From positions 17,794,001-17,858,000 of the forward strand of contig OX597827.1 of assembly GCA_951406725.2 (NCBI GenBank): DNA of 64,000 nucleotides, written 5' to 3'. Source of the DNA: Octopus vulgaris (lineage: Eukaryota). Position numbers and translations under genes: made by a program. How positions within the stretch are numbered: the stretch's first letter is position 1; every line of letters begins with the position of its first letter. Below the pieces are notes generated by a model. The model searched no databases, was not told the origin of the DNA, and saw only the letters and a program-made list of their open reading frames with translations. Shown here one piece after another: positions 50,065 to 61,489 of the stretch.

Positions 50065-50421
50065 ATATTAATTATATTTTTTAATAATTGTTACATGTCT
50101 AAATAATATAAATTAATTTATGTATTGGCTTAAGTCTTTCATTGTTTGATTTGCATAATAGTGGTTTTGTCTCTAATTTAATATAATATAATATTTTTAC
50201 TATAAAATTGGATTCAATCTTAAATCTGATTTTTCCCTGTAAGTTTGGATTTATTCCCTAATATTTATTATTAATTTATATATATATATATATATATATG
50301 GAAAATAGTAAAAAGTGAAAAAACTACAGAAGGCTTGTTTTAAAAAGTTAAAATATATATATTTGAGTCATTATGTCAGAAGAATGTTATAAATTTTTTT
50401 CATACAGTGACATAGTTTTTG

Positions 50422-50461
50422 AAGAAATGACCGGTTTCGCGTTCAGCTTTTCAAATTTCTT
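50422..50461 (-). ncRNA. Minimal type I hammerhead, U3:A8 core variant
   Basis: AAGAAAT-TTGAAAA-GCTGAACGC-GAAA-CCGG-TC-ATTTCTT. Confidence 0.75.
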
Positions 50462-51188
50462 ACATCGTTATGTTTTCGTTGAGAAGTGTAAAAAAGTGTT
50501 CCAGATAAGGGGAGGTAATAAGTGATTTCTTCCGGTGTAAGGGAGATAATCGCTTAATATTTCTTACCTTTTTGTGGGGTGAGTTTCTCTGTATAAGAAT
50601 GTTGGAATGGTTAAGTTTGGGTTTGTATTTTTCAATGAAGGATGTTTCCTTGTTTAGTCTAATTTGTGTTGGTGTTCCGATAGCACATTGGTAAAATGGA
50701 AAGATTAAAAATTGTGGTAGTAGTTGCTTTGCGCATTTCTCAATGTGCTCACTAAAGGGTATCATTCTGTATTCTGGGAATGCAATCTGTTGTCGATGCA
50801 GTGTGTATCTACGTCTGAGTGATAGTCCCGTGGATCCCACGTAGTTTTGGCGGCAGCCCGAGCATCTTATGACATAAATTATGTTTTCAGAGGCACAAGT
50901 AAAATTAGATTTGATCTTGAATTTCTGTCCCTCTTTGAAGAGGAATTCTGATCCTTCTAGCAGGTTTGGACATATTGCACAGTTCAGTCTACCACATTTT
51001 TTTACTTTTGCATCCGTAATTTCAGAAAACAATTTTGCCTTTGTGAGAATCTTTTTAAGTGATTTAGGCTGTTTGTAGCTTTTAATGATTTGGTGTATGT
51101 TTAGAATTTCCTTTAATTTGGGGTCCTTATGAAGTATTGGTAAATTCTGGGTGATGATGGTGAAGGCTTCTTTGTTTTTGGGGTTGTA
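50460..51188 (-). pseudogene. Penelope-like linker, zinc finger and GIY-YIG endonuclease ORF fragment
   Basis: YNPKN..LHKDP..SYKQPKSL..KCGRLNCAIC..FTCASENIIYVIRCSGCRQNYVGST..LRRR..H..EH..E..KPKLN; open frame up to the inverted-repeat junction. Confidence 0.9.
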
Positions 51189-51276
51189 TTATCTCCCTTA
51201 CACCGGAAGAAATCACTTATTACCTCCCCTTATGTGGAACTCTTCTTTACACTTCTCAACGAAAACATAACGATGT

Positions 51277-51316
51277 AAGAAATTTGAAAAGCTGAACGCG
51301 AAACCAGTCATTTCTT
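51277..51316 (+). ncRNA. Minimal type I hammerhead, U3:A8 variant, second copy (stem III palindrome broken)
   Basis: AAGAAAT-TTGAAAA-GCTGAACGC-GAAA-CCAG-TC-ATTTCTT. Confidence 0.7.
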
Positions 51317-51477
51317 CAAAAACTATGTCATTGTAGGAAAAAAATTTATAACATTCTTCTGACATAATAACTCAAATATATATTTTTTAACCTTTTAAAA
51401 CAAGCCTTCTGTAGTTTTTTCACTTTTTACTATTTTCTATATATTCAACCACGTGCTTTCACACACCAACTTTCTCA

Positions 51478-54760: not shown

Positions 54761-54972
54761 TATATTAAATTAGAGATAAAACCACTATTAGGCAAATCAA
54801 ACAATGAAAAACATAAGCCAATACATAAAATTAATTAATTTATATTATTTTAAATATATATCAAAAGTATTAAAAGTTTAATAAAAGATAATGAGTAAAA
54901 CACTACGACAACTAATTATCATATATTATACTTGTATATATATATACACACATATATATACACACACACACA

Positions 54973-55043
<71 letters not shown>

Positions 55044-55628
55044 TGTATTTAGGTGCCAACGAGGGGGAACAAGTTATTATGACAGAGAAGAAAAATATTT
55101 TGCTAGAAAATCAATAAGAGAGCCTCTAGGTGGTTTCTTGACCTGCTAAAAATAGGAGACACATCTCCCTCAAAACACATCCGTCATAGAAAAAGAATAC
55201 AATAGGGGGACATGTTAGATAATGCCATCATAGATACAATATGTGTGAATACCAGTTATGAGAGTCGTATCTGAATTGTCTTTGATCATAAATGAATCCT
55301 CAGTCTGAGCTGACCTTGGGTTAAATAATAACAACAACAACAGCAGCAACAGTACAATGGAAGATTAATAGAAAGAAGACGAAAACTAGAGCAATAGTAG
55401 CCAAGACTGTTGATAGTAATGACTGTGAATTCCCTCAGGCTTTCTCACTATTAGGGTAGGGGCCAGAACAAGAGGAGAGGGGATATAAATACAGTCAACC
55501 TTTTGCTCAGTTGCACACCTGGGTTTCACTTATTTTTTGTGTGTTTTACTACATAAAGGTCATCAACTGCCTCCCCTGAGTAATTACTGATGGCATGTAC
55601 CTGATATATATATCTATCTATCTATCTA

Positions 55629-55676
<48 letters not shown>

Positions 55677-55691
55677 CATATATATATATAC

Positions 55692-55752
<61 letters not shown>

Positions 55753-56422
55753 TATTATTATTATTATTCAGGTCACTGCCTGGAATCGAACTTGGAATTT
55801 TGGGGTTAGTAGCCTGTGCTCTTAACCACTACGTCGTATGTTTGTCAAATGTAAATAATGTACATAATTCCTCATCTCTTAAATATAGAACTATATTTAT
55901 GTTTTCTTCAGAATAAATAGGGTCAGTGGTCCCCAATTTCCTGCCAGGATTGACTTCCTTACTCTACACTTCTCCTCAAGCATTCACTGGCAGTTATGGT
56001 TTATGCTTGGAGTTATGCTTTTATGCTTCTCCTCATCTTGCTGCCCTCTGCGATTGCCAAGCCTAAACTGCCCCTCCCCTCAATTATATCACAAATTTAG
56101 ATGCAGTGGTGCTTTCTTCTGGAGATATACTTTCATGAAAGCTAAAGAGCGCAGCTCATCACTCACTCACTTGGTATTTCTAAGTCCTCGTGCTTTTTCC
56201 TGGTGATTGTGGAACTTATGCTCAGCTCAGCTTTTCCTTTTGATAAATATAGTATTTGTCCTGCTGGACATCTTGCAACCCACCCACCACCACCACCATC
56301 AAGTCTAGTGGAGCGGGTAGGGGCCGGTTTAGTCACTGATGACCTGACTATGGCAACAGGTCATACTGGATTACACTGTGAGTAACCTGGTGTGTGTGTA
56401 TGAGAGAGAGAGGACCTGACAC

Positions 56423-56460
<38 letters not shown>

Positions 56461-56627
56461 AAATTAGAAGATGGAGAAACATACTTAAATCAATCAAACA
56501 TCAACCATCAGATAATACCCAATCAATACTTTATTACACCATTACATAACAGCAAAGACATTATACAAAATATATTGTAAATATAATTAGACAAGGAAAT
56601 AGAAATATAAAATACAATTACATCATA

Positions 56628-56737
56628 TCTAACAGCTTTTTCGGCCGTAGGGACAAGTATGCCTCATTTAACCTATAAGCCATATAAGGCAGGTATAAAT
56701 GAGACATTAACAAGATGTCCCACGGCCTCTTCAGAGA
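56628..56737 (-). ncRNA. Hammerhead copy in the left arm, degenerate at stem III and cleavage site
   Basis: TCT-CTGAAGA-GGCCGTGGGACA...TGTCCCTACGGCC-GAAA-AAGCTG-TT-AGA. Confidence 0.7.
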
Positions 56738-57061
56738 ATTTAATTTAATATAAGTGTGAAAAGATTTTTACATATAAATATAAAAATATAAAATATAAAA
56801 ATGTGTGCATAGACACTCATAATACTACACATATATATATATATATACTCATTAATACAATAATACAAAATAAACAAAATATATCAATGTACATTAACAA
56901 ACACAGTTATTTTACATATTGGACTCCTAGTTCCATAACTAACATCAAGGAAAATATATGCACACTCACATTTAAATTTAAATCAGACATATATACATAA
57001 AAAAAAACACACAGTTCAGTTCATAAAATTATAACCCTACAAAAAGTCAATAAAAATTAAT

Positions 57062-57139
<78 letters not shown>

Positions 57140-60084
57140 CATGACTGTACCATGTACATCAAGCGGACATCTACATATCAATAAGTCTAATTCCTCTGTC
57201 CGCTTGATATTGATTATTCTAGATTGATTCGATTGCCTTATAGTTTTAAATTTGAATCACAAAGGAAATTTTACGGTTAGTTAGTCAAGAAACGCACATA
57301 CGCACACGCACATCCACAGATCCATCGCACATACATACAAAATTATATGTATACACACACACATACACTCATACACATACATAGCCACAAACACAGCCAA
57401 AAACATAAATAAATAAATAATATAAGAGGTATAATCGTAATTATGCAGCCATCAAGCCCCTCCAAAACGACAACAATGCCGTTGTATTAACTAAGAAGAT
57501 CCACTCACATATTTCCATAAAATATTTATTGTAAAGATACATATAATTATATCAAGACATAGAATGTAATTTTTCATAAGGTACATAATTCATATGACAC
57601 CGTATTTTCCGTAGCCATAGTATTTCATAACTAAACGTTTACTGACTTAACCGCTATATGTTATAATCAAACATACGTTAAATTATAAAGTATAGATTAA
57701 ACATTTCCATTTGACTATCAAAAGACAGAAATATACATATACTAAGTTGACATCGGTTTATAGCAATTAAATTATAAGAGATTAATTGTAAGAAGTCAAA
57801 ATACGCAAATATTCTAGGATATGTAAACAAACAAAACAAAACAAAATAATTCCTTATAGCATAAATAGATATCTCTACGTAATAAATCCAATGTTATTAT
57901 AATACTAATATTTATCTATCAAAACCCTTACCTACGAACTAATAGAATTACACTCACATATACATGCCCATAAATATACTCATGTGTAACAACAGACATA
58001 CACATACACACCATATATTTTCACATGTGACGTGCGTGTAAACTTTCATAGTACTTATATATAAATATACTTTTAAGCATCAGTGGACACATAAATACAA
58101 ATGTAATAATTAACAGGATTTGGCATTATATAATTTTGTAGCTACACATGTATATAAATATATATGTCCTGTATTAATTGTTTTTTGTTTATGTTTTTTT
58201 GTCTTGGTTTATAAGGGAAATACACTGCGGCAAGAAAGAATATATTCATTTTGGTATATGCACAGTAATATGATATTCTTGGAGTTTTCTAAAATTACAG
58301 AGTGTGTATGAATATCATAGTTAGATACCTGGTTTTAGATACTGTAATACTATTATGTAATATATGTGAGTCTATATTGGATTTTGTTTGTTTTGGTTGA
58401 GTATATGGGTTTTTGCAGGTTTTTTATTTGGCAGGCTTATATATTGTATATTTAGTGTATCTTTGTACTCACCTAAATTTGTATCTTATGCTATTTATTA
58501 ACAAACCTATTCATTTACTCACATTTGGCTTTATACATATTAGCAGTCTTATATATTTAGTCTATATTTGTACTCATCTTGATTTGTACATTGTGTTATT
58601 CATCTATTTATTTTTTTACTCATTATCTATAGGTAAAAGTTTACATAATAGTAGCCTGTATACTAAGTTTATATATGTACTTTCTTCAATATATATCTTC
58701 ACTTTATTTTATGTTATTTATTTACCTATATACTCTTTTATGCATATGTGGATATATGCATATTAGCATTACTATATATTAGGTGTACCTGTGTATTTAT
58801 CTGAATTTGTTTTCTATGGTATCTATCTATTTATTTAGTCATTCACTTATTTATTTAAATGTAGATATATACATACATATCAATTATTTATTTTAATAAT
58901 ATATGGATACATGTATACTAGTTTGTACTTATACTCTCTTTGTAATTTTAATTATTTCTTCTTATTTATTTTATCACATTTTAATCTTAAGTAATTACAA
59001 TTATTAACTTATAATTAATTTAATTTTTGTTATTTACTTATATACCATTTTATTGGTAAGTCCTCCACTGATATTATTTAATGCCAAATCCTGTTAATTA
59101 TTACATTTGTATCTATGTGTCCACTGATGCTTAAAAGTATATTTATATATAAGTACTATGAATGTTTACACGCACGTCACATGTGTAAATATACGGTGTG
59201 TATGTGTATGTCTGTTGTTACACATGAGTATTCTTATGGGCATGTATATGTGAGTGTAATTCTATTAGTTCGTAGGTTAGGTTTTTTGATGGATAAATAT
59301 TAGTATTATAATGGCATTGGATTTATTACGTAGAAATGATATCTATTTATGCTATAAAGAATCTTTTGTCTTGTTTTGTTTGTTTACATATCCTAGAATA
59401 TTTGCGTATTTTGACTTCTTGCAATTAATCTCTTATAATTTAATTACTATAAACCGATGTCAAGTTAGTATATGTATGTTTCTATGTCTTTTGATAGTCA
59501 AACAAAAATGTATAATCTATACTTTATAACTTAGCGTATATTTGATTATAACAAATTGCGGTGAAGTCAGTAAACGTTATGTTATGTAATACTATGGCTA
59601 CGGAAAATACGGTGTCATATGAATTGTGTACCTTATGAAAAATTACATTCTATGTCTTGATATAATTATATGTATCTTTACAATAAATATTTTATGGAAA
59701 TATGTGAGTGGATCTTCTTAGTTAATACAGCGGCATTGTTGTCGTTTTGGAGGGGCTTGATGGCTGCATAATTACGATTATACCTCTTATATTATTTATT
59801 TATTTATGTTTTTGGCTGTGTTTGTGGCTATGTATGTATGTATATGTATGAGTGTATGTGTGTGTGTATACATATAATTATGTATGTATGTGCGATGGAT
59901 CTGTGGATGTGCGTGTGCGTATGTGCGTTTCTTGACTAACTAACCGTAAAATTTCATTTGTGGTTCAAATTTAAAACTATAAGCCAATCGAAACAATCTA
60001 GAATAATCAATATCAATCGGACAGAGGAATTAGACTTATTGATATGTAGATGTCCGATTGATGTACTTGGTACAGTCATGGTTG

Positions 60085-60149
<65 letters not shown>

Positions 60150-60470
60150 AGTAATTTTTATTAACTAGGGTTATAATTTTATAAACTGAACTGTGTGTTT
60201 TTTTATTTTTTTATGTATATATGTCTGATTTAAATTTAAATGTGAGTGTGCATATATTTTCCTTGATGTTAGTTATGGAACTAGGAGTCCAATATGTAGA
60301 ATAACTGTGTTTGTTAATGTATATTGATATATTTTGTTTATTTTGTATTATTGTATTAATGAGTATATATATATATATGTGTAGTATTATGAGTGTCTAT
60401 GCACACATTTTTATATTTTATATTTTTATATTTATATGTAAAAAATTTTCACACTTATATTGAATTAAAT

Positions 60471-60581
60471 TCTCTGAAGAGGCCGTGGGACATCCTTGTT
60501 AATGTCTCATTTATACCTGCCTTATATGGCTTATAGGTTAAATGAGGCATACTTGTCCTCACGGCCGAAACAGCTGTCAGA
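60471..60581 (+). ncRNA. Type I hammerhead with intact core and ~86-nt stem II
   Basis: TCT-CTGAAGA-GGCCGTGGGACA..TGTCTCATTTA..TAAATGAGGCA..TGTCCTCACGGCC-GAAA-CAGCTG-TC-AGA; predicted cleavage after 60578. Confidence 0.85.
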
Positions 60582-60911
60582 TATGATATAATTATATATT
60601 ATATTTTATACTTTATATTTCTATTTCCTTGTCTAATTATATTTACAATATATTTTGTATAATGCCTTTGCTGTTATGTAATGGTGTAATAAAGTATTGA
60701 TTGGGTATTATCTGATGGTTGATGTTTGATTGATTTAAGTATGTTTCTCCATTTTCTAATTTTGTATATATATATATATATACATACATATATATATTAT
60801 CATTAATATATATATATATTATATATATTATATATATTATCATTAATTAAAATCTTAGAGTAGCAAGAATATTCATCGAAAAATTCTTAGTGTTTGAACG
60901 TACACTGTATT

Positions 60912-60953
<42 letters not shown>

Positions 60954-61053
60954 ACACATAAAGGGTGAAATATAATTAATTTAATAAAATTAATAAATTT
61001 CACCTAGTAGTTATTTGGATATGGAAATGACCATATTCGGTAAGGATTATGTA

Positions 61054-61334
61054 TAATTATAATAAAGGGTTAATTGCAACAAGTTGCTCAAAACCACATA
61101 CCGAAAATATTAGAAATAGCAACCAAATAGGTCACCATTACTACTACTAGAAAAATAAGTCTCCACAAACAAATAGAATTTGCAATCTTTACCATATACG
61201 GGTTACAAATTCTATTTGTTTGTGGAGTCTTATTTTTCTAGTAGTAGTAATGGTGACCTATTTGGCTGCTATTTCTAATATTTTCGGTATGTGGTTTTGA
61301 GCAACTTGTTGCAATTAACCCTTTATTATAATTA
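61054..61334. repeat. Near-perfect fold-back hairpin (~134-bp arms, ~13-nt loop) between (TA)n tracts
   Basis: 61054-61187 is the reverse complement of 61201-61334. Confidence 0.92.
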
Positions 61335-61336
61335 AA

Positions 61337-61418
<82 letters not shown>

Positions 61419-61419
61419 C

Positions 61420-61489
<70 letters not shown>

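Follow-up and report, generated by a model that had tools for sequence, protein, structure and literature searches.

Two probable head-to-head, 5′-truncated copies of the long 3′ region of a Hydra-clade Penelope-like element in Octopus vulgaris

A 4.3-kb inverted repeat (56457–60764) in the window, a 64,000-nucleotide stretch of the Octopus vulgaris genome (contig OX597827.1, positions 17,794,001 to 17,858,000), consists most probably of two head-to-head 5′-truncated copies of the 3′ region of a Hydra-clade Penelope-like element (PLE), each likely reverse-transcribed from its own RNA into nicked (TA)n; we put the probability of this reading at roughly 0.85. The original prediction, made from the letters alone, had offered two interpretations of the repeat, a non-autonomous, ribozyme-processed, retrozyme-like element or the extremely long 3′ region of an undescribed PLE. 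Its observation is confirmed, and its interpretation is partly right.

From left to right, a (TA)n target (56425–56458, no strand) is followed by the left arm, an inverted 5′-truncated copy of the element's 3′ non-coding region belonging to the L039 sub-lineage (56459–58134, minus strand), whose 3′ end at 56459 is at end site 1, without a tail. This arm contains a hammerhead predicted to be inactive (56628–56737, minus strand), with mutations in stem III and the cleavage triplet, and a (TTA)n microsatellite internal to the element (57049–57138, minus strand). The two copies are joined 5′ to 5′ at 58126–58134, a 9-nt microhomology in which 8 of 9 letters fit both copies and which lacks a TA tract. 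The main copy, also 5′-truncated and belonging to the L031 sub-lineage (58126–60764, plus strand), begins approximately 100–110 nt past the stop codon of the absent open reading frame (ORF) and again ends at site 1 without a tail. It carries the internal (TTA)n microsatellite at 60088–60163 (plus strand) and a type I hammerhead at 60471–60581 (plus strand), and abuts a (TA)n-rich target (60765–60837, no strand).

The arms, 56459–58134 and 59073–60764, are reverse complements at 96.5% identity (1617 matches, 58 mismatches and 54 gap columns, in an alignment that takes in 18 nt of TA) and lie 938 nt apart, with (TA)n on both sides of the whole, in agreement with the predicted pair of ~1.7-kb arms around a ~0.94-kb spacer. 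The flanks on the left and right sides of this 4.3-kb palindrome are unlike each other. The predicted spacer (58135–59072, plus strand) has the expected length of 938 nt but is not a separate piece: it constitutes the main copy's unique 5′ portion, and other genomic copies have it in one contiguous piece with the right arm. The absence of a credible ORF is borne out as well, given that the single 121-aa frame (58401) has no Pfam match and is not preserved among copies; a search for an ORF hidden in the 3′ region gave longest ATG frames of 33–133 aa, none of them common to the 11 copies compared. In contigs of four DNA-like sequencing runs both copies are deeply covered and the junction is bridged by none, although such contigs say little for a repeat. 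A small second two-armed inverted element lies in (TA)n at 60914–61489; it has 2166 first-look candidates and looks like another PLE-type insertion.

The inverted repeat is only the 3′ non-coding part of a coding PLE. The last 595 nt of the arm gave 1925 first-look candidates in the octopus's own genome, of which the best 40 were scored and are 91–97% identical, and is thus a dispersed, high-copy repeat; the spacer gave 505 candidates, the best 40 of which are 86–96% identical. Of 86 distinct 3′ matches, 56 terminate at the base corresponding to 60764, beyond which comes either TA or a common extension; the remainder are mostly cut by locus edges. The 5′ ends are variable: the ORF is reached by 3 of the 20 copies fetched via the 3′ end, and 17 stop short. 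All 24 loci that contain the main-copy start extend upstream of it in register, by 0.1–2.8 kb, and this extension leads into an ORF that reaches its stop codon 110 nt upstream of 58135. Genome-wide searching with the arm and spacer, as the original prediction had suggested, thus finds an ORF of the RT/GIY-YIG type upstream and favours the second of its two interpretations; the constant 3′ end at (TA)n and the varying inversion points that it anticipated are both observed, and the 5′ ends vary too.

What follows some 3′ ends as an extension is where the next tandem unit begins; copies accordingly terminate at one of two sites, separated by 179 nt. Loci retrieved with the tail as query end in TA in 29 of 30 cases, one odd fragment continuing. 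Both tandem and inverted truncated copies occur in the family, as they do in the Hydra clade, and head-to-head fusions were found in 28 loci, with overlapping ends in 19. Several loci have structures of their own. L036 6747–9000 is a two-armed copy in which reverse complementarity extends to the flanks past the (TA)n tracts on either side, indicating a local inverted duplication or an assembly artefact. In L138 1376–1773, a single case, 25 nt from the beginning of the ORF are joined to the final 93 nt of the 3′ region, behind which come the tail and ~95 nt of leader. At L041, L045, L173 and downstream in L169, elements are inserted in or beside family copies, including into the internal (TTA)n.

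Among the fetched copies of the window's own sub-family no unbroken ORF was found. A query with the 5′ end of the ORF (141 candidates, 40 scored) retrieved a sister sub-family that is younger, has complete partial tandems and is the source of the intact ORF. Its L169 unit of 5578 bp comprises a 179-nt tail, a 137-nt leader, an unbroken 947-aa ORF whose ATG is located 316 nt past the beginning of the tail, and a 3′ region of 2418 nt that has its hammerhead ~180 nt from the end. Lengths of the 3′ region are 2577–3012 nt for 19 copies from the window's sub-family and 2344–2583 nt for 31 sister copies, 2.3–3.0 kb overall in these 50, counts that omit one mis-anchored row and one intermediate copy (2462 nt). 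Between the sub-families the ORF is 85–90% identical and the alignable 3′ region 66–75%, with an unalignable middle block; the best-kept parts of the 3′ region are the hammerhead and the last 200 nt, and only 14 of 60 indels in it are multiples of 3, so reading frame is ignored. Small hairpins fold behind both end sites (z −3.0 and −1.2). They are not alike, and the idea that twin look-alike hairpins mark the two sites was rejected.

The L169 ORF codes for a reverse transcriptase (RT; YRDD) followed by a C-terminal GIY-YIG endonuclease (EN; YIG motif) in a single frame. It contains RIRWR, with R in place of the K of RWK, and SDKT, a CxCX5C linker, no CCHH, no cysteines inside the GIY-YIG domain, CxxC ahead of E and a terminal CxH; in several copies of the window's sub-family the second Cys has been lost. 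The same features, RW(K/R), DKT, CxCX5C, no CCHH and CxxC/CxH around E and N, are found in the Hydra clade, including Hydra-1_Obim and Penelope-13_HM, in the part of PMC8557442 available to us; so are the C-terminal GIY-YIG, the (TA)n target, a type I hammerhead near the 3′ end and partial tandems. L169 also has the hammerhead near the 3′ end, (TA)n insertion, a fixed 3′ end and an optional tail. At 5578 bp its unit exceeds the <3 kb of the clade, whose PLEs are described as 'generally short' in that text, a descriptive rather than a defining trait. On the basis of the motifs and a by-eye comparison with the PMC8557442 alignment, rather than a tree with named references, we assign the element to the Hydra clade. 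Database searches add to this in part. The EN part scores 0.95–0.96 to GIY-YIG-type clusters in a protein atlas, and 315 proteins in a 50% library match the ORF at E ≤ 1e-30; among 20 relatives, Pfam gives weak RVT_1 in 2 and weak GIY-YIG in 1, below the cut-off. The ORF itself is without a match in Pfam and PDB sequence searches, and a single-sequence AlphaFold model has a pLDDT of 29. Two asparagine-rich inserts, at residues ~510–620 and ~700–805, are missing from shorter relatives.

The PLE remnant at 50296–51443 (minus strand), which carries a 242-aa frame and 257-nt inverted arms and which the original prediction had cited as a neighbouring PLE with an inverted upstream pLTR, is not the parent of the repeat. 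It is of the Neptune/Naiad type: the traits of that group, a CX2-5CxxC linker (here CX4CxxC) and CCHH cysteines inside the GIY-YIG EN, are present in the neighbour and absent in L169, and the best BLASTP piece between the two is 17 aa long (E 0.027).

What appears to be new is a 3′ region about ten times the usual length for the clade, together with the 86-nt helix II and the 179-nt tail. In the available text of PMC8557442, complete Hydra families measure 2084–2729 bp, as opposed to the 5578-bp unit here, helix II stems in the Hydra rows have 3–7 bp and tails 30–40 bp; the Hydra families given there are without the 2.3–3.0-kb 3′ region or the 947-aa ORF with asparagine-rich inserts. By eye, Hydra-1_Obim differs from the present element in its protein start and hammerhead. 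Penelope-13_HM has an inverted 5′-truncated copy of 966 nt (PMC8557442), and PLEs in general are 4–6 kb long (PMC6431247). The rotifer Adineta vaga offers partial parallels, as described in the accessible part of PMC3846280. Pen1_Av likewise has a long non-coding stretch, of 0.9–1.5 kb, between ORF and 3′ repeat, the N-rich elements Pen2a/3/4 have asparagine-rich ORF inserts, and the Penelope elements of this species show microhomology at 5′ junctions. However, Pen1 belongs to a different clade, its 3′ region is half as long as the one here, and its spacers are unrelated between copies, whereas the present 3′ region is homologous across sub-families apart from one replaced middle block. Within the literature searched, a scope that takes in few subscription journals and neither Repbase nor Dfam, we came across no account of the family, nor of arms with mixed sources.

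The right-arm hammerhead (plus strand) has CUGAAGA at 60474–60480, GAAAC at 60567–60571 and GUC; the predicted cut follows 60578, at a distance of 186 nt from the end. It is formed by a 3-bp helix I, an 86-nt helix II (60481–60566), GAAA and a 2-bp helix III with a palindromic AGCU loop. Its left-arm counterpart (minus strand, 56734–56631) lies 172 nt from the end and carries a C-to-A change in stem III and a C-to-U change at the cleavage site; a hammerhead ~170–185 nt from each outer end had been predicted, and the positions hold while only the right one is intact. A hammerhead descriptor gave one match in the main copy, as against 0 in 1000 shuffles, and the fold has z-scores of −5.8 and −6.7. 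Rfam returned no ribozyme among 13 matches at E ≤ 10 in 60300–60800. Of 110 matched copies, 104 retain an intact core.

The helix II structure was evaluated on 39 of 68 distinct variants, hand-picked to span the sub-lineages. In these, 97.0% of cells pair, compared with 27–42% in slid controls, and in 5 pairs both partners have changed (26 cells). None of 500 shuffles reached the observed values for paired share, cell count or covariation score; the pair count was reached by 5 and the pair-type count by 73. Because the window's copy supplied the structure and the rows share ancestry, these compensatory changes support, rather than prove, what may be selection on the 86-nt helix II. A short helix III with a palindromic loop is a form of hammerhead predicted to act as a dimer (PMC4209133, in the part accessible to us), and for the present ribozyme cleavage is predicted only in dimeric form or with a protein to assist it. 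No clustering at the cut site is seen among approximately 55 true 5′ ends (2 lie within 2 nt, none is exact), at most a weak hint of cleavage-defined ends and no sign of the template processing implied by a ribozyme-processed retroelement. The copies indicate uncut RNA as the usual template, in agreement with the Poseidon element PAc of Anolis, which also uses uncut RNA as its template and the insertion of which does not need its hammerhead (PMC11167929). As far as that source was accessible, PAc also shares with the present family two fixed 3′ end sites that define a tail and an AT-rich target. It differs in being of another clade, in having been assayed in vitro and in that its hammerhead overlaps the ORF start, the one here lying ~500 nt upstream of the next ATG.

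The two arms descend from different sub-lineages. When both were compared with 24 other copies, the left arm was nearest to L039 (98.4%) and the right arm to L031 (98.1%), the arms being 96.4% identical to each other. At 34 of 60 differences between them the arms carry alleles common to at least 3 of the 24 other copies, and 31 of 32 informative sites split the arms by lineage; private changes number 13 and 12, with only 1 common to both. The spacer likewise follows L031 (0.7% versus 4.2%). The arms were therefore likely copied from two separate RNAs, not folded back from one. Both this mixture and the presence of two site-1 ends are unusual for the family. Of the 28 head-to-head pairs, 23 are comparable, and in 17 of these the partner arm (0–1% apart) is unbeaten by any other copy; three more differ by at most 0.3%, and one is too short. 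At L181 the inverted arm follows another lineage at all 3 sites within 262 nt. Nineteen of 22 clean two-armed insertions combine one site-1 with one site-2 end, 10 of the 19 having been fetched with the tail as query. Two loci bear on the surroundings of such insertions: L034 holds a two-armed insertion followed by a second element from another lineage, and L309 3355–4736, 3.8 Mb away on the same contig, is a 92–94% paralogue of the left flank (54972–56458) that stops at the same (TA)n and then differs, with another small two-armed element.

Both copies would be the work of the element's own RT and GIY-YIG endonuclease, probably acting on a read-through tandem transcript. cDNA synthesis would start internally, at site 1 or site 2, as with PAc in vitro (PMC11167929), and would have halted short of the ORF, at 2.6 and 1.7 kb. 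How the two copies came together could have three origins, among which two successive insertions are the most likely, with odds slightly better than even. Here the second insertion would have entered (TA)n beside an older two-armed insertion, its 5′ end being joined to the older arm by microhomology with loss of the intervening DNA. This sequence of events would account for both the mixed lineages and the two site-1 ends, and the L034 layout is the precursor that it predicts.

A single integration event is a serious competitor, though the less probable of the two: two RT–RNA complexes, with RNAs from two source loci, would prime both strands of one cut (TA)n and extend in each other's direction, and microhomology would join the products. 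The direct fusion without TA at the junction and the similar private divergence of the arms (13 versus 12) would fit such an event, L181 may be a further case, and PAc extends both strands in vitro and is a predicted dimer (PMC11167929, in the part available). Yet both ends here are of site 1, a rare class for two-armed insertions, most comparable pairs have no copy nearer than the partner arm, and L034 demonstrates that adjoining independent insertions happen. That later recombination or conversion brought the arms together, the third origin, is improbable.

Further down the scale, and very improbable, is the dedicated non-autonomous, multi-kilobase retrozyme-like element, processed by its ribozyme and moved by PLE enzymes, of the original prediction. 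The window piece is indeed non-coding with a conserved hammerhead, and most copies fetched via the 3′ end stop before the ORF, but the family has no fixed 5′ end, every copy with the main-copy start continuing toward the ORF, and no ORF-less tandem unit: all 37 tandem junctions in 10-kb loci, mostly picked by ORF sequence, enter the ORF. The TA endings of the tail-query loci and the lack of 5′ ends piled up at the cut also weigh against it. Metazoan non-LTR retrozymes, in the part of bioRxiv 10.64898/2026.07.22.740005 available, are similarly non-coding and PLE-linked and have a type I hammerhead; they are short ORF-less tandem units, whereas the window holds the truncated end of a coding element. 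Least probable of all are a single cDNA folding back on itself, an inverted duplication arising locally and an error of assembly, since any copy of one template gives one-lineage arms, and the lineage split, with a single shared private change and differing flanks, rules out all three unless a whole arm was later converted. In their favour, self-priming has been proposed for head-to-head PLE repeats (PMC3846280), and the junction is unbridged, which says little in a repeat.

The EN parts of two relatives (best 150 candidates scored each) led to two further Hydra-type families in this genome. One (L261, L201–L230) is short-tailed, with a 717-aa frame, ends ~283 or 356 nt past the stop, a hammerhead core CCGA(A/U)GA and very many near-identical copies. 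The other (L265–L284) is a second long-tailed family, with an intact 718-aa frame in L277 (G000:C18:62336000-62345900) and a 3′ region of ~3.1–3.5 kb (20 loci) that is largely TA/TG microsatellite, with a short hammerhead near the end; its likeness to the long 3′ region described above is limited to an 80-nt microsatellite-like block. A quick tree of 31 proteins places both long-tailed families in one group (SH-aLRT 99), with the short-tailed one apart. Given its midpoint root, quick search and unnamed relatives, and 3′ lengths known only for this genome's families, the tree makes a single origin of long tails a lead only. The combined proposal that the arms came from two RNAs in one event and that a Hydra sub-clade shares multi-kilobase 3′ regions with an elongated hammerhead is accordingly tentative and, on balance, doubtful. 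If its first part were true, the repeat would be direct genomic evidence for two RT–RNA complexes priming both strands, as opposed to self-priming; if its second were, long lineage-marked arms would make two-source insertions countable genome-wide.

The origin of head-to-head PLE repeats is unsettled, with self-priming proposed on one side (PMC3846280) and both-strand extension seen in vitro on the other (PMC11167929), as far as these sources were available. With arms of 1–2.6 kb and many distinguishable sub-lineages, the octopus family makes mixed-source arms and end-site use countable. This genome's ORF-less, AT-rich hammerhead repeats, which number in the thousands, represent tails of a coding element, and are hence not to be filed as retrozymes or MITE-like elements.
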